Source: Escherichia phage ECP2301. Taken from it: 64,000 nucleotides of DNA. Every line of letters starts with the position of its first letter. Within the stretch, counting starts at the first letter, position 1. Positions 3,084 through 64,000 of this stretch are shown piece by piece. The notes under the pieces are model-generated. The model was not told where the DNA came from, did not search any database, and was given only the letters and a program-made list of their open reading frames with translations. A program made the translations under genes and the position numbers. The stretch is from the sequence record OR880646.1, one strand, 5' to 3'.

Positions 3084-3149
3084 GTTATCGAGTTGGTGCC
3101 ATTATATACATCATTTTCTGAGTGTGTTTTGTGTGCTTTCAAAATGAAG

Positions 3150-3170
3150 AAAGGGGCCGAAGCCCCTTAT
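3150..3170 (-). terminator. Stem-loop / terminator downstream of hoc
   Basis: ggggc-CGAA-gcccc hairpin followed on minus strand by TTTCTTCATTTT. Confidence 0.65.
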
Positions 3171-3172
3171 GA

Positions 3173-4591
3173 TTATGGATAGGTATAGATGATACCAGTT
3201 TCTAAAGCAGTTTTATGAATGATGTATCCATTACGTGATTCTTGAACATCAACTTCTGGATAGTCTTTCATCATCTTCTGAAGGGTGTAACGATGCAGGT
3301 AGTATTTACTATCTGGATCTTCAGTTTTCCAATCTTTACCTTCTTCGGTCATTTTTTGGATTTCATCCATAACCCACCAGCCGCACCAGATATAAGCCGA
3401 AGTACGATGTGGAAGAGGATGAACATAAGGCAATTCACCTTCTGGTTCTGGAGCAACTTTATCAGTTACCTGAACTTGACCTTCTGCTGTGATAGTTTTG
3501 CTATCATAATCAGTAGCAGTAACAGTTGCAGTAACTTCAATAGTTTGACTTCCAATAGATGATGTATCAACGGTGTATACATTAGTTGACCCTTCTACTG
3601 GAGAAGAATCTTTCTTCCATGAATATTCAATTTGAGCTTCTTCTGGAGCATCAGTGACATTAGCAGTAAATGTAGCCGAAGCATCTTGCTGAACGTTAAT
3701 AGAAGGAGGAGTCAATGTAACCTGTGGATTCATTGTCTTCTTATTAACTGTTAATGATACTTCATTAGAAGTAACTTCCTTTTCATTGTAATTTTCTGCA
3801 GTTACTTGAGCTACACACTTAACTGTTTTAGCTCCAACTGTGGTAGGAGTATAGTTAAATGTAGTAGTAGTTTCTCCATCGACCAGAGAACCGTCAACAT
3901 ACCACTGATACGTAGCAGACGCTCCTGGTGGCTGTGAAGCCAAGGCAGCAGTAAATTGAACTGGGGTTCCAATTACCCCGGCAGCAGGATTAGCAGGAGT
4001 TACGGCTAACGTAGTTGTCTGTGTCTTCTTATTAACTGTTAATGACACTTCATTAGAAGTAACTTCCTTTGCATCATAATCTGCCGCAGTTACTTGAGCT
4101 ACGCACTTAATTGTTTTAACTCCGCTTGTGTCAGGAGTGTAATTGAATGTAGCGTCAGTTGCTTCGCTTACAGGAGAACCGTCAACGTGCCATTGATACG
4201 TAGCAGATGCACCTGATGGCTGTGAAGCTAAGGCAGCGGTAAATTCAATTGGAGTTCCAATCACTCCAGCATCAGGGCTACCAGGAGTTACAGCTAAAGT
4301 AGTTGTCTGTGTCTTATTTTGAACTGTGATAGTTGTACTAATTTCTGCTGTTTCAGGTTCAGATTCTGCAACTTGATTGGTTGCAACGACTTTAATAGTC
4401 TTTTGACCGGCAGGTCCTTTTAGTACATAACTAAAAGTTGCTGACGTTTCTTCCTGCGGAGCGTCGTCTACAGTCCAAGCATATGTAATAGGTCCATCTC
4501 CAGTTTGACCACTGGGTGTAGCAGTAAACTGCTGAGTCTGATCTATAACTCCAGTAGGTGTTTTAGGAGTTATATCAACTGTAAAAGTCAT
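3173..4591 (-). CDS. hoc: Hoc outer capsid protein, enlarged by tandem Ig-like domain duplication
   Basis: 472 aa vs 376 aa in T4; Ig-like repeats; C-terminal capsid-binding region conserved; position between 24.3 and inh. Confidence 0.85.
   Translation of the reverse strand: MTFTVDITPKTPTGVIDQTQQFTATPSGQTGDGPITYAWTVDDAPQEETSATFSYVLKGPAGQKTIKVVATNQVAESEPETAEISTTITVQNKTQTTTLAVTPGSPDAGVIGTPIEFTAALASQPSGASATYQWHVDGSPVSEATDATFNYTPDTSGVKTIKCVAQVTAADYDAKEVTSNEVSLTVNKKTQTTTLAVTPANPAAGVIGTPVQFTAALASQPPGASATYQWYVDGSLVDGETTTTFNYTPTTVGAKTVKCVAQVTAENYNEKEVTSNEVSLTVNKKTMNPQVTLTPPSINVQQDASATFTANVTDAPEEAQIEYSWKKDSSPVEGSTNVYTVDTSSIGSQTIEVTATVTATDYDSKTITAEGQVQVTDKVAPEPEGELPYVHPLPHRTSAYIWCGWWVMDEIQKMTEEGKDWKTEDPDSKYYLHRYTLQKMMKDYPEVDVQESRNGYIIHKTALETGIIYTYP
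3735..4310. repeat. Tandem direct repeat, 2 x 288 bp (in-frame Ig-domain duplication inside hoc)
   Basis: Unit starting gtcttcttattaactgttaatga at about 3735 recurs at about 4023; encoded 96-aa units are near-identical (KTQTTTLAVTP...SNEVSLTVNKK). Confidence 0.85.
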
Positions 4592-4600
4592 AAGTTATCC

Positions 4601-5281
4601 TTATTTTAATGTTACGAAAGAAGAATTGCGTGTTTCACGAATTAGAACTGATCCGTCACGATTAATGTAGTAAATTAAGCTAAATAAAGTTTGGTGTGCC
4701 GACGCATGTTCAAAACTAGTTGGGTGAGATTTCCAATCCGGAGTTTCAGCAATCCACTGGTAAATCCACCAAGGAACAGTGCAGAATCCTGGATTTTTTC
4801 CAATCAGCTGAAGATTCGGACTAAAGTTTTCCGGAAGAGTAAATACAGACGGCTTTTCAGATTCAATAATCTCAGCTACAGCCTGCTCGAATTTTTCTTC
4901 AACAAAAGGAGTATCTTCAATCAAAACATCGGTATTTTCAGGAATTTTATCCGTTTCTACTACTTCAATTTTAATGTCAGATTTAACCGGAGAATCAATC
5001 AGAAGTGCTGCCTCTGGATTGACTTCTTCATCGTCATATTTTAATCCGTCTGCAGCATCAGCAGCATCAATTAAGTCTTTAATAGATAACCCATCAGTCT
5101 CTGGCATAGGTTCACTAGCGAGCTTCTGGAGGGCTTCTTCAATATCATTAACGATATTATCAAAAGATTTATTCTTTTTGACCTTTATACCAAACTGTTC
5201 AGCATATTCAGCTAATTTAGCTTTAGCTTCTTTATTATCATCAAGAGCCTTCAGCTCTGCAATATAATCTTTATCTATCAT
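4601..5281 (-). CDS. inh: Inh, inhibitor of prohead protease
   Basis: 226 aa ORF at T4 inh position between hoc and uvsW. Confidence 0.7.
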   Translation of the reverse strand: MIDKDYIAELKALDDNKEAKAKLAEYAEQFGIKVKKNKSFDNIVNDIEEALQKLASEPMPETDGLSIKDLIDAADAADGLKYDDEEVNPEAALLIDSPVKSDIKIEVVETDKIPENTDVLIEDTPFVEEKFEQAVAEIIESEKPSVFTLPENFSPNLQLIGKNPGFCTVPWWIYQWIAETPDWKSHPTSFEHASAHQTLFSLIYYINRDGSVLIRETRNSSFVTLK

Positions 5282-15372: not shown

Positions 15373-15400
15373 ATGGGGACCGAAAGGTCCCCATATTTTT
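15373..15400 (+). terminator. Intrinsic terminator after gene 54
   Basis: ggggacc-GAAA-ggtcccc hairpin followed by T-rich tract. Confidence 0.7.
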
Positions 15401-15689
15401 ATTTACGGAATGAAATGAAAGCAGCAACTGAAGCAACTAAACTGTCTTCAATATAAACTTCAATTTTTACCGGAGCTTCTGACTCAAATTTGCCTGTTAC
15501 TACACCTTGGAAAATGCTTTCAGTCTGTTCTGGCTTTGAAAAATTTTCAGAAGGAAAAATTCCGAACTTTTTATCTGTTCCAAAAATTTTGATAAATTCA
15601 TCATAAACTGCTTCATTAAAAGCGTTATCAGCAGGAATAACGCCTTCAACTACAAGTTCTTGACCTAAAAAGCGTAAAGAAGATTTCAT
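15399..15689 (-). CDS. Hypothetical protein (alt-upstream-region ORF)
   Basis: 96 aa ORF with GAGGA RBS; preceded by repeated promoter/leader cassette. Confidence 0.55.
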   Translation of the reverse strand: MKSSLRFLGQELVVEGVIPADNAFNEAVYDEFIKIFGTDKKFGIFPSENFSKPEQTESIFQGVVTGKFESEAPVKIEVYIEDSLVASVAAFISFRK

Positions 15690-15697
15690 TTTGTGTT

Positions 15698-15750
15698 CCT
15701 CATGTTATGTCAGTAAGATTACTATAACACAACACGAGGGACTTGTAAAC
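15698..15750 (-). promoter_or_regulatory. Promoter plus leader cassette, copy 1 of a 53-bp exact repeat
   Basis: Minus strand GTTTACAAGTCCCTCGTGTTGTGTTATAGTAATCTTACTGACATAACATGAGG; identical to 31676-31728. Confidence 0.6.
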
Positions 15751-17807
15751 TACATCTTGAACTTTTTAGACATTCCGTTGATGTTAACCAAAGAAGCCAA
15801 GATTTGAGAAACTTCGTTTTCCTCTTCTTTTGATTCTTCTACAAGGAATTGATTAAACCCAGCCATTGGACGAACTTCGCCAGTTTCCATTAGATGATCG
15901 CCATCATATACCGATTCTTCTAATTGTTCAGAAGGAGGAACGATTGTGCCTTCGATTAGATACTTGTTATAAGCAGTTTCTTTCATCATGTACGTGCTCA
16001 CTTTATTAATCTTCAGCAAAATTCCACGCGGTAGAATAACTTCAGCTTCTGATGGAAATCCCGATAAATGACCTGGAACGATAACTTTGATTCGCTCAGC
16101 CCCTTTAATTACCATACCTACGCTAGTTTCAGCATCTTCATTCGCATAAGCAGAATGACTGCCCATATGCATTAAATCTTCAGCATCAACAGAACCTTCT
16201 CCTTCACCAGAAAATACTGCGCCGGAATCATCTAGAGCCATATAGTTTTTACCATGCTCACCGAAGATATTTGGTTTAAGCGATGTTGATACGAAGTTCT
16301 TGAAATAGAACATTTTATTTTCAATATTATGGCGTAAAGTTTTAAAAGTAACTTCTTGTCCACGATAAAGCGTAGTTCCTGGAGGAAGAACTGAACCTTT
16401 GGCAAAGGCAGAATCCAGCGTCTCGATGTGTTTAATAGCTCGTTCCATATATTCTTCACGGGTAGAATCTGGTTTACCCAAGAGGAACGAGTTCATTTCA
16501 ACATATGAATCTGCACAATAATCTTCAATTACATCAGACTCAGCCTGAGTCAGTCCTTTTGGAGTTACTTCGGTGCTTGAGTATTCATATGCCTGAGCAG
16601 CAGATTCATTAATCAATTTATAAATGCCATTCATGACAAATTGAATAATAGCTACCTTTTCGTCTGGCGTAGCTTTAGAACCTTTAACTAAATCATTGAT
16701 AATTTTCTTAATAACATCAAAGCTATTAGAAATATTAATGTCAGCGAGATCGCTCAAAATTTTATCGGTTTTATAATCAAAAAATTCTTTATTCTTTAAA
16801 TATTCTTGAGAACCTTGATGTGTTATATCGCTCTGCAGTCTGATAGACGGATCACGTAAACGCGCATGGGCCAATGCAATATGATTTCGGAAGCTTTCTA
16901 GTTCATAATCGTTAGATTTAAAACGAGAAGCACTTCTCATACCACCGATAGCTCCTTTGCCGAAGTTTGAACCAATCTGAATAACACCAGAGTTCATTGG
17001 TCCTTCTGCTTTATATACCGGAACTTTAGATTCAAACTCTTGATATTTCTTGGCAGCGAAGCTATCACCCTGTAGCGAAGCATCGACAGTAGAATATTGA
17101 GCTTGTGCTGCTAATCGACGACTAATTTTAGTTTTCTGAATAACAGCTTGATCCGTGCGCTTATCATTTTCTAAAGCAATAGAAGCAGCAACAGCAACAG
17201 CTTTAGGAACAGCATTACCTGTTTTAACATCTACATAAACATCACCAACCTTTGATTCAACTTTTGTGAATAACTCAGTTGAAATAGGAGGTACACCTGG
17301 AATGTCTTCTAAATTGGCATTTTTACGGTAAACCATAATATATGCATACTTTTTATCATAATCCCAGATTTCCTTTAAAAGAACATATCGACCTGCTCCT
17401 TTAGTACGTACTAAACGGTCAGCAATAACTTGCATTTGACGAGCTGCGCCATTTGTTTTACTTTTTAGTACGCGGAATAAGCATGCATCAATTTTATACT
17501 GTTTCATTGTTTGAAGAGCAGTATCAAAAACGGCATTAATGACACCAATTGGATTTCCACCCAAGTTTTTAAGTTTAACTAATGATAGTTTCTCATTAAC
17601 ACCTATCATTACGATATGCATCATTTTATCGCCTGGCTTAACGTTTTTATTTGTATCACCGCCAGAGGTGTATGTACAAAATCTAAATCCAGGAAGCACG
17701 CTTTCTTCACCGGCTTGAATAGCAAAAATTTGAGGTATTTTATGCTTAGGATTTAAGTTAACAACCGGCGCCGAAGCGCCGTCAAATAATTCTGTAATAA
17801 GTTCCAT
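15750..17807 (-). CDS. Alt-like mono-ADP-ribosyltransferase, second paralogue
   Basis: 685 aa; N-terminal ~170 aa alignable by eye with Alt; R-S-ExE ART motifs (YRGQ, FVSTSL, SEAEVILPRG). Confidence 0.85.
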   Translation of the reverse strand: MELITELFDGASAPVVNLNPKHKIPQIFAIQAGEESVLPGFRFCTYTSGGDTNKNVKPGDKMMHIVMIGVNEKLSLVKLKNLGGNPIGVINAVFDTALQTMKQYKIDACLFRVLKSKTNGAARQMQVIADRLVRTKGAGRYVLLKEIWDYDKKYAYIMVYRKNANLEDIPGVPPISTELFTKVESKVGDVYVDVKTGNAVPKAVAVAASIALENDKRTDQAVIQKTKISRRLAAQAQYSTVDASLQGDSFAAKKYQEFESKVPVYKAEGPMNSGVIQIGSNFGKGAIGGMRSASRFKSNDYELESFRNHIALAHARLRDPSIRLQSDITHQGSQEYLKNKEFFDYKTDKILSDLADINISNSFDVIKKIINDLVKGSKATPDEKVAIIQFVMNGIYKLINESAAQAYEYSSTEVTPKGLTQAESDVIEDYCADSYVEMNSFLLGKPDSTREEYMERAIKHIETLDSAFAKGSVLPPGTTLYRGQEVTFKTLRHNIENKMFYFKNFVSTSLKPNIFGEHGKNYMALDDSGAVFSGEGEGSVDAEDLMHMGSHSAYANEDAETSVGMVIKGAERIKVIVPGHLSGFPSEAEVILPRGILLKINKVSTYMMKETAYNKYLIEGTIVPPSEQLEESVYDGDHLMETGEVRPMAGFNQFLVEESKEEENEVSQILASLVNINGMSKKFKM

Positions 17808-19927: not shown

Positions 19928-19935
19928 TATTTATA
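19928..19935 (-). promoter_or_regulatory. Late promoter upstream of alt
   Basis: Minus strand TATAAATA about 20 nt upstream of alt start; consistent with late expression of a packaged protein. Confidence 0.6.
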
Positions 19936-19956
19936 AAATTAAAGGCCCGAAGGCCT

Positions 19957-20145
19957 TTAATAATCTATTGGTAAGAGAGTACGGTATATTTCAAACTTTG
20001 GACCTTTTTCATAGGCATCAAATGTTTCTGTGAATTTATTATAAGCATATGCATCTATAAATTCAATCATAATTTGTGATACAGAAGTAGAAACATCTCC
20101 ACCTTCTTTTTGAGCCACGACAATTGTTTCTAAGTAAGCTTTCAT
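19957..20145 (-). CDS. Hypothetical protein
   Basis: 62 aa ORF between ligase and alt. Confidence 0.5.
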   Translation of the reverse strand: MKAYLETIVVAQKEGGDVSTSVSQIMIEFIDAYAYNKFTETFDAYEKGPKFEIYRTLLPIDY

Positions 20146-23845: not shown

Positions 23846-23886
23846 AGTATTTTCCTCAGTAAGGGGCCGAAGCCCCTCATTTTATT

Positions 23887-24252: not shown

Positions 24253-24320
24253 TTTTATTCTCCGAGATGTTTAATTGCGGTACATGTATATAATATCATA
24301 TCCTGTACCAAAGTAAACAA

Positions 24321-24653
24321 TTATTTTACTACTTTCCAGTGCTGCATGTCAAGTTTACCAACTTTTTTCATCTTCTCAATTAAGCGTTCTGCGCGTTGGC
24401 GAGCTGTAACATAATGCCATTCACCTAATTCATTTTGTTCAATTTTTCCAACGATTACTGTATTCAATTCATAAATCCAACCAGTAAAGAAATTATGAAC
24501 TTGAATTGTAAAGGTGAAATCTGTTCCCATACCTTCTGTTGTTTCTACTTCAATAATATCACCTTCAACTGCCATTAAGAACCACATAGTTTCATCATAT
24601 TTACCATTGAAGCATTTAGTTTTAACTGCAGCGTTCAGATTAATCGTTTTCAT
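24321..24653 (-). CDS. Hypothetical protein
   Basis: 110 aa ORF. Confidence 0.55.
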   Translation of the reverse strand: MKTINLNAAVKTKCFNGKYDETMWFLMAVEGDIIEVETTEGMGTDFTFTIQVHNFFTGWIYELNTVIVGKIEQNELGEWHYVTARQRAERLIEKMKKVGKLDMQHWKVVK

Positions 24654-24737
24654 TTTATTCTCCTTTGTTTGTGTAAGATAATACTATCACAAAGGAACCA
24701 TACTGTAAACAACTTTGTGCAATCTTTGGAAAATAAA

Positions 24738-28342: not shown

Positions 28343-28405
28343 TTCAATTTCCTCATTTGTTTTTGGTAGAGCTATAATATCACAACTCTACCGTAAAGTA
28401 AACTA

Positions 28406-30823: not shown

Positions 30824-31173
30824 TTAGAAAGGTCCTGGATGTCTTCTGCGAACTTGTTGAAGGAGTTGTTGATTTGTTTTTCAACCAATCCTGGCTTATG
30901 AGCCACCACATCCGCCTTCTTTGCGTCTTTGCGCAGTTTTTCATTTTCACGCTCAATAGCAGCAATTGCCTCACGATTTTTATTATTCATCGCATCAATA
31001 TAATTATACTGAATTCGCAAATTATTTAATGCTAAAGCGTTTTCATTGGCCGTTTTTGTAATTTCTACAACAGACGTTTCTAATCTTTCAATTTTATTTT
31101 TTAAAATTAAAGAAGTTCCGCCCAATGCAATTACAATTAATAGCAAACCTGTTGTCGTATTACTTAATTGCAT
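30820..31173 (-). CDS. Inner-membrane protein with periplasmic coiled coil, i-spanin-like
   Basis: 117 aa; N-terminal TM segment GLLLIVIALGGTSLIL then charged helical region. Confidence 0.7.
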   Translation of the reverse strand: MQLSNTTTGLLLIVIALGGTSLILKNKIERLETSVVEITKTANENALALNNLRIQYNYIDAMNNKNREAIAAIERENEKLRKDAKKADVVAHKPGLVEKQINNSFNKFAEDIQDLSK

Positions 31174-31670
31174 AAAGTTTTAATAACCTCTATAATATCG
31201 TCTTGAGAAAGACCGTTAATTAAAATATGATGTTCAGCCGGAGATTTAGAAATTTTAAAGCATGCCTCAACATCTTCTGCCATATCCGATGCGCTACGAT
31301 TTGGATTACTAATTCCAAGACGATGTTTTCCCGTCAAAGGATTAACGATGATATAGCATTTACAGTTATTAATATGAACATTAGGTTGAGTCTGATTAAT
31401 GAATACATCACAATCATATTTCGCAAGCTGATTTTCTAAAAAGACTTTCATCTCCTCAACTGCATCAGGAAGCATATCACGGGCTTGCTCAAGACGACGA
31501 TTTCGATATTCTTTAATGGTCGTTTTCCGCTTGACTTGTTTAGCTAAATCTTTCTTAAGATCGGTGATATATCCAACTCGACGATTTCCTTTAAATACAG
31601 AAATCCCATCTGTAGTATCACCGTATGCTTCAACGACCATCTCAGTAGTAATAAGCTGCAAATCCATCAT
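31164..31670 (-). CDS. alc: Alc, inhibitor of host transcription
   Basis: 168 aa; T4 Alc length and position between spanin-like pair and rnlA. Confidence 0.7.
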   Translation of the reverse strand: MMDLQLITTEMVVEAYGDTTDGISVFKGNRRVGYITDLKKDLAKQVKRKTTIKEYRNRRLEQARDMLPDAVEEMKVFLENQLAKYDCDVFINQTQPNVHINNCKCYIIVNPLTGKHRLGISNPNRSASDMAEDVEACFKISKSPAEHHILINGLSQDDIIEVIKTLCN

Positions 31671-31675
31671 AAAGT

Positions 31676-31728
31676 CCTCATGTTATGTCAGTAAGATTAC
31701 TATAACACAACACGAGGGACTTGTAAAC
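31676..31728 (-). promoter_or_regulatory. Promoter plus leader cassette, copy 2 of a 53-bp exact repeat
   Basis: Identical to 15698-15750; directly upstream of alc start. Confidence 0.6.
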
Positions 31729-31731
31729 AGC

Positions 31732-33319
<1,588 letters not shown>

Positions 33320-39945: not shown

Positions 39946-40326
39946 CTACTTTTTAAAAGTTTTTCGCAAAAGTTCAATGATTTCATCTACATTGTTTTCG
40001 TCAACAATGCAGTGAATTTTTGTTACGCCAGAAACCTTGTCTTCAATTTCATCTTCTTCAGAAGTCGGTTCTTTATACTCGCGAAAACAATGAAATTCGT
40101 CTTCGCAAATTTCTGAAAGTCTATCACAAAGGTAAAAATGCTTTCCATTAGCGCATTCAATGTGTTTTACCGCTTTAAATCCATTAGCAAAGAAAACTTC
40201 TTTAACTTCAAACCATCCGCCATTTTCTCGAATAATTTTAACTATTGACGCATTGGATCGTGGGCTATAATTAATAAATGTATCAATAAGTCTTGGAACA
40301 AGTTCATACTTTTTGCCAATATACAT
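39946..40326 (-). CDS. Hypothetical protein
   Basis: 126 aa ORF. Confidence 0.5.
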   Translation of the reverse strand: MYIGKKYELVPRLIDTFINYSPRSNASIVKIIRENGGWFEVKEVFFANGFKAVKHIECANGKHFYLCDRLSEICEDEFHCFREYKEPTSEEDEIEDKVSGVTKIHCIVDENNVDEIIELLRKTFKK

Positions 40327-40370: not shown

Positions 40371-40634
40371 TTATTGTTCAATCAGTCCCATGTAAAATTC
40401 TGCGTCTTCAGAATCCATACCATCACAATATTCATTAGCCATAAAACGAGTGAGGTCTTCAAGAGGACCTTCAATAACGATTTGAATACTCCAAAACTTA
40501 GAATCTTGTACGCTTGTGATACTAAGTTCAGGATAACGATTACGAATAATTTCTTCAATATATTCAAAATCAACGATGTCAATATCAACTTTAGCCATAT
40601 TATTTTCCTCTTTAATCATCAGCAGTATTGCCAA
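40371..40634 (-). CDS. Hypothetical acidic protein
   Basis: 87 aa ORF directly downstream of an early promoter. Confidence 0.5.
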
Positions 40635-40698
40635 TAGTTGTATAGTACCACAGTCCTTGTGGTATGTAAACTGTTTTGTGAAAAAATTTTTGAAATAA
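40625..40698 (-). promoter_or_regulatory. T4-type early promoter
   Basis: Minus strand A/T-rich UP region, GTTTAC -35, spacer, cTGTGGTACTATAca extended -10. Confidence 0.7.
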
Positions 40699-40699
40699 A

Positions 40700-40722
40700 A
40701 AAGGGGACCTCTAGGGTCCCCA
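40700..40722 (-). terminator. Intrinsic terminator after gene 32
   Basis: ggggaccc-tcta-gggtcccc hairpin followed on minus strand by TTTTTTATTT. Confidence 0.75.
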
Positions 40723-44017: not shown

Positions 44018-47000
44018 ATGGCCGAGATTAAAAGAAAGTTCAGAGCAGAAGATGGTCTGGACGCAGGTGGCGATAAAATAATCAACGTAGCTTTAGCTGA
44101 TCGTGCCGTAGGAACTGACGGTGTTAACGTTGATTACCTAATTCAAGAAAACACAGTTCAACAATACGATCCAACTCGTGGATATTTAAAAGATTTTGTA
44201 ATCATTTATGATAACCGCTTTTGGGCTGCTATAAATGATATTCCAAAACCGGCAGGAGCTTTTAATAGCGGACGCTGGAGAGCATTACGTACCGATGCTA
44301 ACTGGATTACAGTCTCATCTGGTTCATATCAATTAAAATCTGGTGAAGCTATTTCGGTTAACACTGCAGCTGGTAATGATATTACATTTACTTTACCATC
44401 TACTCCAATTGACGGTGATACTATCGTTCTCCAAGACATTGGAGGAAAACCTGGAGTTAACCAAGTTTTAATTGTAGCTCCAGTGCAAAGTATTGTAAAC
44501 TTCAGAGGCGAGCAAGTACGTTCAGTACTAATGACTCATCCAAAGTCACAGTTAGTTTTAATTTTTAGTAATCGTCTGTGGCAAATGTATGTAGCTGATT
44601 ATAGTAGAGAAGCTGTAGTTGTAACACCAGCGAATACTTATCAAGCACAATCCAACGACTTTATCGTACGTAGATTTACTTCTGCTGCACCGATAAATAT
44701 TAAACTTCCGAGATTTGCTAATCACGGCGATATTATTAATTTCGTCGATTTGGATAAATTAAACCCTCTTTATCATACAATTGTTACGACATATGATGAA
44801 ACGACATCAGTACAAGAAGATGGAACTCATTCCATTGAAGGCCGTACATCTATTGACGGTTTCTTGATGTTTGATGATAATGAGAAATTATGGAGATTGT
44901 TTGACGGGGACAGTAAAGCACGTTTACGCATCATAACGACTAATTCAAATATTCGTCCAAACGAAGAAGTTATGGTATTTGGTGCGAATAATGGAACAAC
45001 TCAAACGATTGAGCTTCAGCTTCCAACTAATATTTCTGTTGGTGATACTGTTAAAATTTCCATGAATTACATGAGAAAAGGACAAACAGTTAAAATCAAA
45101 GCTGCCGGTGAAGATAAAATTGCTTCTTCAGTTCAATTGCTGCAATTCCCAAAACGTTCAGAATATCCACCTGAAGCTGAATGGGTGACTGTCCAAGAAT
45201 TAGTTTTTAACGGTGAAACTAATTATGTTCCAGTTTTACAACTTGCTTATATAGAAGATTCTGATGGAAAATACTGGGTTGTACAACAAAACGTTCCAAC
45301 TGTAGAAAGAGTTGATTCTTTAAATGATTCTACTAGAGCAAGATTAGGCGTGATTGCTTTAGCTACACAAGCGCAAGCTAATGTCGATTTAGAAAATTCT
45401 CCACAAAAAGAATTAGCAATTACTCCAGAAACATTAGCTAACCGTACTGCTACAGAAACTCGTAGAGGTATCGCAAGAATAGCAACTACTGCTCAAGTGA
45501 ATCAGAACACCACATTCTCTTTTGCTGATGATATTATCATCACTCCTAAAAAGCTGAATGAAAGAACTGCTACAGAAACTCGTAGAGGTGTTGCTGAAAT
45601 TGCTACGCAACAGGAAACTAATGCAGGTACTGATGATACTACAATCATCACTCCTAAAAAGCTTCAAGCTCGTCAGGGTTCTGAATCATTATCTGGTATT
45701 GTAACCTTTGTATCTACCGCAGGAGCTACTCCAGCTTCTAGTCGTGAATTAAATGGTACAAACGTTTATAATAAAAACACTAATAATTTAGTTGTTTCGC
45801 CTAAAGCTCTGGATCAGTATAAAGCTACTCCAACGCAACAAGGCGCAGTAATTTTAGCAGTTGAAAGTGAAGTAATTGCTGGACAGAGTCAAGAAGGATG
45901 GGCAAATGCGGTTGTAACGCCAGAAACGTTACATAAAAAGACATCAACTGATGGAAGAATTGGTTTAATTGAAATTGCTACGCAAAGTGAAGTTAATACA
46001 GGAACTGATTATACTCGTGCAGTCACTCCTAAAACTTTAAATGACCGTAAAGCAACTGAAAGTTTAAGTGGTATAGCTGAAATTGCTACGCAAGTTGAAT
46101 TCGACGCAGGCGTCGACGATACTCGTATCTCTACACCATTAAAAATTAAAACTAGATTTAATAGTACTGATCGTACTTCTGTTGTTGCTCTATCTGGATT
46201 AGTTGAATCAGGAACTCTCTGGGACCATTATACCCTTAATATTCTTGAAGCAAATGAGACACAGCGTGGTACACTTCGTGTGGCTACACAAGTTGAAGCT
46301 GCTGCAGGAACATTAGATAATGTTTTAATAACTCCTAAAAAGCTTTTAGGTACTAAATCTACCGAATCGCAAGAAGGTGTTATTAAAGTTGCAACGCAGT
46401 CTGAAACTGTGGCTGGAACGTCAGCAAATACTGCTGTATCTCCAAAAAATTTAAAATGGATTGTGCAGAGTGAACCTACTTGGGCAGCTACTACTGCGAT
46501 AAGAGGCTTTGTTAAAACTTCATCTGGTTCAATTACATTCGTTGGTAATGATACAGCTGGTTCTACGCAGGACTTAGAGCTATACGAGAAAAATAGCTAT
46601 GCAGTATCGCCATATGAATTAAACCGTGTATTAGCAAATTATTTGCCATTAAAAGCAAAAGCTGCTGATACAAATTTATTGGATGGTCTAGATTCATCTC
46701 AATTCATTCGTAGGGATATTGCACAGACGGTTAATGGTTCACTAACCTTAACCCAACAAACGAATCTGAGTGCCCCTCTTGTATCATCTAGTACTGCTAC
46801 GTTTGGCGGATCAGTTTCGGCAAACAGCACATTAACTATTTCTAATACTGGAACGGCAACTCGTCTGATTTTTGAGAAAGGACCTCAAACTGGAACTAAC
46901 CCAGTACAGACGATGACTATCAGAGTTTGGGGAAATCAGTTTGGTGGCGGTTCAGATACAACACGTTCTACTGTATTTGAAGTTGGTGATGAAACGTCTA

Positions 47001-57889: not shown

Positions 57890-57962
57890 AGTAGTTGATA
57901 GTTGTATAGTACCACAGTATGCTTTGGTTGTAAACCGTTTTGTGAAAAAATTTTTGAAATAA
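57890..57962 (-). promoter_or_regulatory. T4-type early promoter upstream of motA
   Basis: Minus strand GGTTTACAACC ... ACTGTGGTACTATACAACT preceded by A/T-rich UP region. Confidence 0.7.
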
Positions 57963-57965
57963 AAA

Positions 57966-57990
57966 AGGGAGAGCCTCAGCTCTCCCTAAA
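57966..57990 (-). terminator. Intrinsic terminator
   Basis: gggagagc-ctca-gctctccc hairpin followed on minus strand by TTTTTATTT. Confidence 0.7.
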
Positions 57991-61080: not shown

Positions 61081-61315
61081 AGTAAGCGTTTAATACATCA
61101 ATCATTAAAACGATTGGGAATATACTCAAAACTACTAGTATTATAACTACATTCCATATAGCTTTAACAATCTTTTTCATTTTCTGTTCCTCCGTAGTTG
61201 ATAGTGTAATAATACCACAGAGGAACAGTCTTGTAAACAACTTTTTTAAAAATATTCGTAATAAATGTGAATACCAACTACTACCGCTGAAACTTGCGCA
61301 ACCCACCACGCACAA
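61067..61315 (-). CDS. Hypothetical membrane protein
   Basis: 82 aa ORF with two hydrophobic segments. Confidence 0.5.
   Translation of the reverse strand: MCVVGCASFSGSSWYSHLLRIFLKKLFTRLFLCGIITLSTTEEQKMKKIVKAIWNVVIILVVLSIFPIVLMIDVLNAYFGFM
61195..61260 (-). promoter_or_regulatory. T4-type early promoter
   Basis: Minus strand GTTTACAAG ... cTGTGGTATTATtaca. Confidence 0.6.
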
Positions 61316-61914: not shown

Positions 61915-61985
61915 CGTATCAGTTGATAGTTGTATAGTACCACAGTCCTTGTGGTATGTAAACTGTTTTGTGAAATTTTTTTAAA
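61915..61985 (-). promoter_or_regulatory. T4-type early promoter
   Basis: Same family as 40625-40698: GTTTACATACCACAAGGACTGTGGTACTATACAACTATCAACTG. Confidence 0.7.
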
Positions 61986-62538
61986 TGGAAAGATACCATC
62001 CGTTGTAGTTGCTTTTTCTTACAACCTTACGAAGGTCTTCTCTGTCACCAATGAACTTCGGAGTGTACTGAATGACACCTGGATGAATTTCTTTAGTGTT
62101 GAATATAATTATACAGTCAGCGACCTGATGATTCAGAATGGGCCCTAGATTTATTCCAGAACCATATGGATACTCTCCGCTGCATCCTGTTGTTACAGAA
62201 ATCCAACGTGAGTCAGTTTGATGTGTCTTAACTTCTACACGAAGCCCGCAGTATCTTGGATGCGCCAATACATCCCATGCGTATGTATACGGGTCATTAA
62301 CATCCTCTTGGCCTTTGTTAACATACCCGCTTAGCCAATCTGCTACAAAAAACTCTGCGTACACCGCGATACGACATCTTTCGATAACTTCTGCTTTATC
62401 CTGGTTCGGGTTTTGTTTTAAAGAGTATCTTGCTGTATCAGCAATTTTGACCTTCATTTCACTAGTCAAGTCACTGTTCGATAGGGTAAATGTCGGAATC
62501 TGAAATAGTCTCTGTAAACCCGGATTCGTTTTCTGCAT
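61981..62538 (-). CDS. denB: Endonuclease IV
   Basis: 185 aa, T4 DenB length; position next to rIIB. Confidence 0.8.
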   Translation of the reverse strand: MQKTNPGLQRLFQIPTFTLSNSDLTSEMKVKIADTARYSLKQNPNQDKAEVIERCRIAVYAEFFVADWLSGYVNKGQEDVNDPYTYAWDVLAHPRYCGLRVEVKTHQTDSRWISVTTGCSGEYPYGSGINLGPILNHQVADCIIIFNTKEIHPGVIQYTPKFIGDREDLRKVVRKSNYNGWYLSI

Positions 62539-62788: not shown

Positions 62789-62817
62789 ACAATAAATCAT
62801 AATTTTTCCTTAAAACA

Positions 62818-62845
62818 AAAGGGCCGAAGCCCCTTATTTTATTTG
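62818..62845. terminator. Stem-loop with flanking T-tracts
   Basis: GC hairpin with GAAG/CGAA-type loop, T-rich on both sides. Confidence 0.55.
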
Positions 62846-63033: not shown

Positions 63034-63061
63034 AATTTTCCTTAGTTAAGGGCCGAAGCCC

Positions 63062-64000
63062 TTATTTAAATTGTTCAGTAACGTCTTCAACTACTTCGTA
63101 TTGGCAGGTACGCATTTTAGCATCGTTGTAATCAATCGGAATTGATACTACATCACGCGGATGCACTTTAACTTTTACAACTCGACTGGTTGAACTGCCA
63201 AAGTGACGAATATAAGATTTAGAACACACATGCAGACCACGAGAACAAGTTTGTGTATCATCGTCATTCACACGAGTACGTGGCATTTTAACTACTTTAC
63301 CAGGACTGTTATCAAAAGTATTTGAATGACAGTCAAAGTAATTACTGCGAACTACTTTCCATGCATAGAAGTAACCATCTTCTGTAATTTCAATATCGTT
63401 TGCTACCAAGAAATCGAAGAGTCGAGATACCGCTTTTTGGCTCGGGTTTTCCAACAGATTTTCCAAGAACGGAAAATAAAATTCAAAGTTTTCGCCTTTT
63501 TCCATCGAATCGAGAATACGATCAACTAAACCAGACCGCAATTCAATATTTTGATAGAACAAGCTTCCACCTTCAATTCGAACATCACCGGAAATATATT
63601 TTTCAACAGCGCGACGAACGTTAATTTTTTGCGCCGCTTCTTCCAATTTATCTGCAACAAGCAGATTAAGAATTTCCTGGAAGTTTGAATGAGTATTAGG
63701 AGTTGCGTTATAAGTTACACCATCAACAGTAATTGAAATGAATTTTTTAGATGCATTCCAAATAATGTCAGATTTAGCAACTGGAGCAATAGCTATATCG
63801 CTATTAACTTTAACCGTAATGTCACCGCTAATAGTAACTTTAGGACGTTTAGCTTCTTCAGCATTTTTCAAAACACGGCGGATTGTGTCAACCGATACAT
63901 CCTTCCAATAAGCTAATTCCTGCTGGGTGTAATTACCACTTGAATACAGTTTGACAATTTCAGCTTGTTCGTTTTTGGTCAGGCATTTAATATTGTACAT
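63062..64000 (-). CDS. rIIB: rIIB rapid-lysis protein
   Basis: 312 aa, T4 rIIB length; ATG start is the last codon of the window; position next to denB. Confidence 0.88.
   Translation of the reverse strand: MYNIKCLTKNEQAEIVKLYSSGNYTQQELAYWKDVSVDTIRRVLKNAEEAKRPKVTISGDITVKVNSDIAIAPVAKSDIIWNASKKFISITVDGVTYNATPNTHSNFQEILNLLVADKLEEAAQKINVRRAVEKYISGDVRIEGGSLFYQNIELRSGLVDRILDSMEKGENFEFYFPFLENLLENPSQKAVSRLFDFLVANDIEITEDGYFYAWKVVRSNYFDCHSNTFDNSPGKVVKMPRTRVNDDDTQTCSRGLHVCSKSYIRHFGSSTSRVVKVKVHPRDVVSIPIDYNDAKMRTCQYEVVEDVTEQFK

Follow-up and report, generated by a model that had tools for sequence, protein, structure and literature searches.

A 54 bp repeat in the genome of Escherichia phage ECP2301 (sequence record OR880646.1) represents two conserved early cassettes of PeSL-like type, which are predicted to mask the SD sequence of the gene that follows. 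One copy lies in front of alt.-3 and the other in front of alc. An explanation of the whole pattern is favoured with modest confidence: both copies would be SD-masking early cassettes, the alc cassette would have replaced the one at alt.-3, and selection together with conversion would have kept the two alike. The stretch of DNA analysed, here termed the window, is 64,000 nucleotides long and is of Tequatrovirus (T4-like) type; its nearest relatives are HY01, PEC04 and ESh26, with ∼99.5% identity around the first copy.

The repeat, its promoter and its predicted hairpin

The original prediction described a 53 bp exact repeat present at two loci about 16 kb apart. This is confirmed, and the repeat proves to be slightly longer. 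The 53-mer has exactly two exact occurrences in the 64-kb window, one at 15698-15750 and one at 31676-31728; they are separated by 15,978 bp and run in the same direction. The longest exact repeat extends one base beyond it to 54 bp (15697-15750 and 31675-31728). A search of the window for further copies, with up to 3 mismatches permitted, still gives just these 2 matches, and none is found in 100 dinucleotide-preserving shuffles. Immediately outside the 54 bp repeat the flanks of the two copies are unrelated. The genes around both copies are all on the minus strand, and the gene context first assigned to them, with copy 1 before a 96-aa open reading frame (alt.-3) and copy 2 before alc, is correct. 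The features of the two loci are as follows.

15697..15750, minus strand: cassette copy 1 (54 bp, exact repeat), early promoter, leader and SD of alt.-3
15750-15745, minus strand: copy-1 -35 GTTTAC, with the sigma-70 hexamer TTTACA at 15749-15744
15729-15727, minus strand: copy-1 TGn, followed by the -10 TATAGT at 15726-15721
15726..15739, minus strand: 5′ arm of the predicted copy-1 hairpin (CCCUCGUGUUGUGU..), spacer plus first -10 base, present only in read-through RNA
15698..15711, minus strand: 3′ arm of the predicted copy-1 hairpin (GACAUAACAUGAGG), with SD GAGG at 15701-15698 (GAGGA to 15697)
15399..15689, minus strand: alt.-3, 96 aa, Pfam DUF5498, served by copy 1
15373..15394, no strand assigned: terminator-like hairpin, bidirectional, downstream of alt.-3 where the leftward transcription unit ends
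15750..17807, minus strand: alt.-2, a 685-aa full-length Alt-like ADP-ribosyltransferase paralog
31675..31728, minus strand: cassette copy 2 (54 bp, exact repeat), early promoter, leader and SD of alc
31728-31723, minus strand: copy-2 -35, with the -10 TATAGT at 31704-31699 and TG
31704..31722, minus strand: 5′ arm of the predicted copy-2 hairpin
31672..31689, minus strand: 3′ arm of the predicted copy-2 hairpin, SD GAGGA at 31679-31675 plus flank ACUU
31164..31670, minus strand: alc, Pfam ALC, inhibitor of host transcription, served by copy 2
31732..32856, minus strand: rnlA (gene 63, RNA ligase 1), start inferred from the length of T4 rnlA

The stop codon TAG of alt.-2 overlaps the first G of the copy-1 -35 element, there is no terminator between the two, and alt.-2 transcripts can read into copy 1. 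Copy 2 begins 3 nt past the rnlA stop codon, ahead of alc, and rnlA transcripts can likewise read into it. The alt.-2 gene is full-length in the window, as it is in T2, RB9 and RB18; T4 retains mere remnants, alt.-1 and alt.-2 (T4 record 4566-4951), and thus has a deletion just upstream of copy 1.

By its motifs, the repeat is a T4-type early promoter plus leader. The minus-strand unit reads GTTTAC AAGTCCCTCGTGTTG TGT TATAGT AATCTTACTGACATAACAT GAGGA, with a leader of ∼25 nt. The earlier assignment of a promoter and a leader with a GAGGA ribosome-binding site is borne out by a consensus scan, which gives TTTACA, a 17-nt spacer, TATAGT and an extended -10 TG at both loci, with 10 of 12 consensus matches. 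T4 early promoters, which consist of UP, -35, TGn and -10 elements, have the same GTTTAC/TTTACA, 17-nt spacer, TGn and TATAGT (PMC2988021). Their UP element is A/T-rich; here the region upstream of the -35 lies outside the repeat, in the coding ends of alt.-2 and rnlA, and displays the A-tracts CTAAAAAG (copy 1) and AAAAATTATAAAAAATTT (copy 2). The late-promoter motif TATAAATA is absent from the cassette, and the promoter is of the early sigma-70 type. A literature search found no mapped transcription starts or translation data for these two loci.

A feature that the original prediction did not describe is an anti-SD sequence (CCCUC...) in the promoter spacer. The predicted hairpin consists of a 14-bp stem and a 4-bp inner stem; its 5′ arm is made up of spacer sequence plus the first -10 base, the inner stem takes in the -10 element, and the 3′ arm holds the SD. 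At the alc locus, the AAGUCC of the repeat pairs with a locus-specific flank, GGACUU, to form a 6-bp outer stem, so that the layout is 6 + 12 + 4 bp. RNA that reads through copy 1 has a predicted fold of -26.2 kcal/mol (z = -4.9) and that through copy 2 one of -28.5 kcal/mol (z = -4.3), and 0 of 200 shuffles are as stable. RNA from the cassette's own promoter, taken after the -10, is unstructured (-1.8 kcal/mol). The predicted probability that the SD is unpaired is 0.001 in read-through RNA vs 0.22 in own-promoter RNA for alt.-3, and 0.008 vs ∼0.71 for alc; the read-through values are the same regardless of the length of upstream context. Read-through RNA is thus predicted to mask the SD of alc and of alt.-3, and such occlusion may take place in vivo. 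RNA from the cassette's own promoter would be free of the 5′ arm by geometry, for a start site that we infer to lie ∼7 nt past the -10.

Proposed working and related systems

Each copy would place an early promoter and a leader with its ribosome-binding site right behind the stop codon of another gene, one whose transcription also occurs later in infection. Middle transcripts that pass through nrdB-denA-rnlA, and late transcripts that pass through alt and alt.-2, would carry both arms, and in such read-through RNA the SD of alc or alt.-3 would be locked within a helix of 14-18 bp. RNA started at the cassette's own promoter would have lost the 5′ arm and would present a free SD. Alc and Alt.-3 would then be made mainly from their own immediate-early transcripts, and the hairpin may serve to keep later read-through RNA from yielding these two proteins.

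Published T4 data describe the setting in which this would operate. In time-resolved omics of T4, alc and alt.-3 are of the early RNA/early protein class, rnlA is early RNA/late protein and alt.-1/alt.-2 are middle RNA; alc is also a known immediate-early product (PMC2988021). The middle promoters listed for T4 include PnrdB and PI-TevIII, both upstream of denA-rnlA, and have no entry for the interval from rnlA to alc. In the window, one further element is likely, judged by its motif, to be the source of late transcripts through alt, alt.-2 and alt.-3:

19928..19935, minus strand: late-promoter motif TATAAATA, 20 nt before the alt start codon

A comparable device is found in T4 genes e, soc, 49 and I-TevI, where the SD and/or AUG becomes part of a helix in long transcripts from upstream, and a promoter within the region of the 5′ strand gives a translated RNA that does not have that strand (PMC3014915). 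As in these genes, the SD of the present cassettes is predicted by folding to be paired in RNA derived from upstream, with support from cross-genus covariation, and an internal promoter would free it. The internal promoter of e, soc, 49 and I-TevI is a late one, which delays translation to late infection, whereas that of the cassettes is early. The predicted timing is therefore reversed, with translation confined to the immediate-early period, and the cassette would function like the e/soc/49/I-TevI class without being a classical member of it, as it has no late promoter. If the hairpin works as predicted, it is a mirror image of the hairpin of T4 lysozyme (gene e), and it offers a simple cis-acting reason why Alc, which blocks transcription of cytosine-containing DNA, and Alt.-3 would be produced only very early. 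Synthesis of the proteins would end with the shut-off of early promoters, despite ongoing middle and late transcription from upstream.

The cassettes also resemble the PeSLs of T4-like phages, as both combine an early promoter, a stem-loop and an SD (Arbiol et al., 2010, PMC2839356; Comeau et al., 2014, PMC4122927). In the PeSLs of RB49 and phi1, the stem-loop is mostly situated between the -35 and -10 elements or over the -10 (PMC2839356), and PeSL cassettes are repeated within a genome and recombine with one another (PMC2839356, PMC4122927). The present cassette has the same layout: it is intergenic, follows directly after an upstream stop codon, and consists of an early promoter, a stable stem-loop, an SD and an ATG. 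The position of the stem-loop also agrees, since its 5′ arm comprises the spacer and the first -10 base (PMC2839356). There are two differences. PeSL stem-loops are described as terminators with a G-run and a C-run (RB49) or as placed just upstream of the promoter (PST/T4), whereas the cassettes found here have the SD itself as 3′ arm and lack a U-tract behind it. PeSLs also cluster round small ORFans in hyperplastic regions and excise them as mini-circles; the two copies described here, in contrast, have 16 kb between them, with essential genes in that interval. Variability is seen in the alt.-2 region, of which T4 has remnants only, and the alc locus is conserved.

An old pair of cassettes and the direction of copying

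A blastn search with the 53-mer gives 997 places in 499 phage records, two per genome, with T4, T2 and RB3 included; the lone record with a single place among the 499 is a 113-kb record. With the pair so widespread in Tequatrovirus, the duplication is an old one. The copies are 48-53/53 identical in the 15 genomes for which both were read, i.e. they differ at 0-5 of 53 positions (mean 2.2). There is no difference between copies in the window or in IMG contig 128797, one in T4 and in pSs-1, two in HY01 and in ESh26, and five in T2.

Several polymorphisms are common to both loci. At repeat positions 15, 16, 27 and 32 either allele is seen at either locus, and the transversion T33A occurs in RB9 (alt.-3) and in an IMG contig (alc). 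The two fully identical pairs differ in allele, with A32 in the window and G32 in IMG contig 128797. Haplotype G29/A32 is present at both loci in the window and in pSs-1, and HY01 and ESh26 have G29/G32 at alc and A29/A32 at alt.-3. Copies within a genome differ at a mean of 2.2 positions vs 2.65 for paralogs between genomes, which gives p = 0.014 in a permutation that ignores relatedness. Collection scans contributed just 6 loci from viral and 8 from metagenome contigs, so that this conversion test covers 15 genomes. The shared polymorphisms suggest exchange between the copies, and the pattern as a whole fits occasional gene conversion on top of purifying selection. The window represents the fully homogenised case, where exact identity fits later gene conversion plus strong selection.

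These data bear on the reading first given to the repeat, namely that a portable promoter and leader unit was recently copied by recombination in this genome and that the two copies are substrates for deletion or inversion. In favour of this is the 54/54 identity in the window, whereas the nearest relatives HY01 and ESh26 differ at 2 positions; the polymorphisms common to both loci suggest exchange, and PeSL cassettes are reported to recombine in RB49 and phi1 (PMC2839356). The presence of the pair in all 499 Tequatrovirus records argues that the duplication itself is old, and the part of the claim that stands is that exact identity in the window fits a later conversion event. The postulated rearrangements fare less well. 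Simple recombination between direct repeats, such as these two copies, cannot invert what lies between them, and deletion of the interval would take gene 30 (ligase), gene 31, cd, pseT, alt and others, of which genes 30 and 31 are essential. A 16-kb duplication would also far exceed the terminal redundancy of T4. No rearranged genome or excision product is seen among the 499 blastn-matched records. Recent copying with rearrangement is therefore unlikely as an account of the repeat, and the pair is a normal conserved feature of Tequatrovirus, neither an assembly artefact nor a sign of recent rearrangement.

A comparison with related phages, proposed with the original prediction as a way to find the ancestral locus, favours alc on the basis of hairpin type in the outgroups. 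In Gaprivervirus, Mosigvirus, Marfavirus and Karamvirus, an early promoter is located directly after the alt stop codon, upstream of alt.-3. Five alt.-3 cassettes from these four genera display a small hairpin that is wholly in the spacer (e.g. GCACAAGGAAGTGC), and the SD is free. Karamvirus AS6 has the small-hairpin type at alt.-3 and the SD-pairing type at alc. These two observations, the small-hairpin type at alt.-3 of other genera and the occurrence of both types in AS6, point to alc as the locus where the SD-pairing cassette is ancestral. In addition, the AAGU of the repeat pairs with the alc-specific flank ACUU. Some Tequatrovirus alt.-3 copies have C11 changed to U, which pairs with an alt.-3-specific flank. 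The repeat is bounded by GTTTAC and GAGGA, motifs that all these promoters have in common.

The identity of the Tequatrovirus cassette to outgroup alc cassettes (0.73) and to outgroup alt.-3 cassettes (0.71) is nearly equal and does not discriminate the donor, so the donor locus is deduced mainly from architecture; the spacer alone differs clearly, with 0.67 vs 0.53. The SD-pairing cassette is thus probably ancestral at alc and derived at alt.-3 in Tequatrovirus. We infer that, in an ancestor of the genus, the alc cassette replaced the resident alt.-3 promoter from GTTTAC to GAGGA, probably by ectopic gene conversion. Afterwards, purifying selection on the promoter, both arms and the SD, with occasional conversion, would have kept the copies alike. 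The pair would thereby represent an example of a regulatory cassette that overwrites a non-homologous promoter and is then kept alike at two loci, a history that bears on the shuffling of regulatory modules in T4-like genomes.

Small spacer hairpins with an SD-like loop (AAGGA or TGGA) are found at alt.-3 of other genera, at alc of Mosigvirus and in the window at 61963 and 40671. Their stems covary (GCAC/GTGC, CACA/TGTG, CCAC/GTGG, CACC/GGTG and AACC/GGTT, with 9 other records included).

Cassettes of other genera and alternative roles of the stem-loop

Regions upstream of alc were collected from eight annotated genera and 40 viral contigs, which gave 27 distinct non-Tequatrovirus cassettes. 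Most of these have the order rnlA stop, GTTTAC, 5′ arm in the spacer, -10, 3′ arm with SD, and ATG, with the 5′ arm starting directly past the -35. The arm pairs differ in sequence, for example UCUCCAUUUGGUU/AACCAAAUGGAGA, AUCCUCAUCAG/CUGAUGAGGAU, AACCUCUCAUUUU/GAAAAUGAGAGGUU and AUCCCCAUUUUGUU/AACAAAAUGGGGAU, and where the SD is of the variant form GGAG or GGGG, its counterpart is CUCC or CCCC, respectively. Ten of the non-Tequatrovirus cassettes have the same register; here pairing holds in 96.2% of cells, and 4 of 13 pairs have substitutions on both sides. Neither the pairing nor the covariation score is equalled in any of 500 shuffles, and pairing falls to 33-53% when the register is slid. 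A spacer folds with its own leader at a mean of -20.6 kcal/mol vs -11.1 with the leader of another lineage.

Pairs were counted on this same-register subset, on a Tequatrovirus-only alignment and by the cross-duplex energy test, in place of two procedures that were set aside. RNAalifold on a plain MAFFT alignment of 33 cassettes gives no consensus structure, with the Tequatrovirus register shifted by 3 columns relative to the others. A covariance-model alignment placed the Tequatrovirus rows in the wrong register, and it also drew in reverse-strand matches and other promoters. In the Tequatrovirus-only alignment, 98.1% of pair cells are standard pairs. Changes of pairs within the genus are C-G to U-G, G-U to A-U and one double change, C-G to U-A, which turns the SD into AAGG. 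There is little variation, and covariation within the genus is not significant (values as high as those observed arise in 134 of 500 shuffles). A few natural variants break a pair (A-C at 18/47 and 29/38, and U-U at 25/40).

Readings of the stem-loop other than SD masking can be weighed against these data. One is that it is mainly an attenuator or terminator, or a 3′-end stabiliser for rnlA and alt.-2 transcripts, and that the SD in its 3′ arm is incidental. The hairpin is located directly behind a stop codon, the T4 transcript class switches at both cassettes, and the effect of one PeSL stem-loop in lowering downstream lacZ expression was comparable with that of a strong terminator (PMC2839356). 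Two promoters of the window, P28403 and P24318, also have hairpins that span the -10 with a 3′ arm that is not the SD. Against this role, the stem is without a U-tract at both cassettes, a terminator scan at both gave no terminator-like site, and an intrinsic terminator (G+C-rich hairpin plus U-run) was rejected on these grounds. Across genera, moreover, the 3′ arm tracks the SD, with GGAG and GGGG variants accompanied by matching CUCC and CCCC, which is unexpected if any stable hairpin sufficed. A main role of this kind is considered unlikely.

Translational coupling is another reading, whereby translation of alc and alt.-3 on read-through RNA would depend on the melting of the stem by a ribosome that has reached the end of rnlA or alt.-2. 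Placement of a stop codon near a stem serves coupling in other operons, and the upstream stop codons are here just 10-14 nt ahead of the first paired base; ribosomes terminating there could partly open the stem. A ribosome at the stop codon, however, would probably reach only the first few pairs of the 14-18 bp helix, and the late appearance of T4 rnlA protein, as opposed to early Alc, argues against tight coupling, which makes this reading very unlikely.

The inverted repeat might instead act as DNA and modulate recombination or the opening of the promoter, be it as a cruciform, as a hairpin in single-stranded DNA or as a palindrome bound by a protein; it does straddle the -10 region that melts on promoter opening. 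Most non-Tequatrovirus arms are near-perfect Watson-Crick repeats; the sense strand is the more stable one in 6 of 14 cassettes from other genera, an inconsistent result, and with antisense folding equal to sense the cross-genus data alone cannot separate an RNA structure from a DNA palindrome. RNA-strand specificity is indicated by three Tequatrovirus G-U pairs, by the types of variant and by a 3′ arm that is always the SD: with the G-U pairs, the sense RNA gains 6-9 kcal/mol in stability over its antisense counterpart (-24.4 vs -15.4 and -23.0 vs -17.2 kcal/mol), and most natural variants are exchanges of the G-U/A-U or C-G/U-G kind, a change that is neutral for RNA of this strand alone. A DNA-level role is the least probable of the readings and is considered very unlikely.

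SD masking in read-through RNA remains the preferred reading for the Tequatrovirus pair, and the upstream layout at alc, with covariation, persists across at least eight genus-level lineages. A broader proposal is that an anti-SD arm in the early-promoter spacer is a general Tevenvirinae device that ties translation of an immediate-early gene to its own promoter and spreads from locus to locus by conversion, with the common -35 and SD motifs as anchors. This is put forward tentatively, as a possibility that is somewhat doubtful at present. A different arrangement is found in Gaprivervirus (VR7 and 3 further records), where an extra small open reading frame, annotated Alc-like, is situated between rnlA and alc and is preceded by a terminator-like hairpin (AAAAAGGGGTGTACAAGCCCCTT) instead of a GTTTAC cassette.

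The window contains 11 early-promoter cassettes, of which three (alt.-3, alc and P61238) pair strongly with their own SD and one (P24710) pairs moderately. A second family of repeated cassettes, D3, was detected.

40634-40705, 57898-57969 and 61926-61997, minus strand: family D3, repeated early-promoter cassettes of 72 nt, 82-88% identity

Unlike the 54 bp pair, the D3 members display a small spacer hairpin (CCACAAGGACTGTGG), extend into the A/T-rich UP region and are inexact copies; two of them have GTTTACATACCACAAGGACTGTGGTACTATACAACTAT exactly in common. Tevenvirinae early cassettes of different loci or genera are ∼70% identical. As hairpins at early promoters are common and the D3 family is threefold, repeated promoter cassettes are normal for this genome.

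At 61172-61238 (minus strand), the early-promoter spacer (CUGUUCCUCUGUGGU) pairs over 15 bp with ACUACGGAGGAACAG, the SD region of a 37-aa open reading frame. The layout is like that of the alc and alt.-3 cassettes, the sequence is unrelated and the duplex is at -26 kcal/mol. Hairpins that span the -10 are found at further minus-strand early promoters, at 24651-24710, 28350-28403, 24290-24318 and near 39946. That of P24710 pairs moderately with the SD (-11.3 kcal/mol); in P28403, P24318 and P39946 the 3′ arm of the hairpin falls in the first transcribed bases and not in the SD. P28403 is a third copy of the repeat family, at 61%.

Other repeats are present in the window. Terminator hairpins of the GGGGCCGAAGCCCC type are found at 3147-3170, 19937-19960, 23857-23880, 62814-62837 and 63043-63066, and also at 1564-1607 and 15373-15394; one of them is just upstream of the alt late-promoter motif. 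Positions 3734-4309 consist of two tandem 288-nt units with 83% identity. Short repeated coding motifs of families D4 and D8 (66-85% identity) are located at 45419-46344 and are probably part of a repetitive structural protein.
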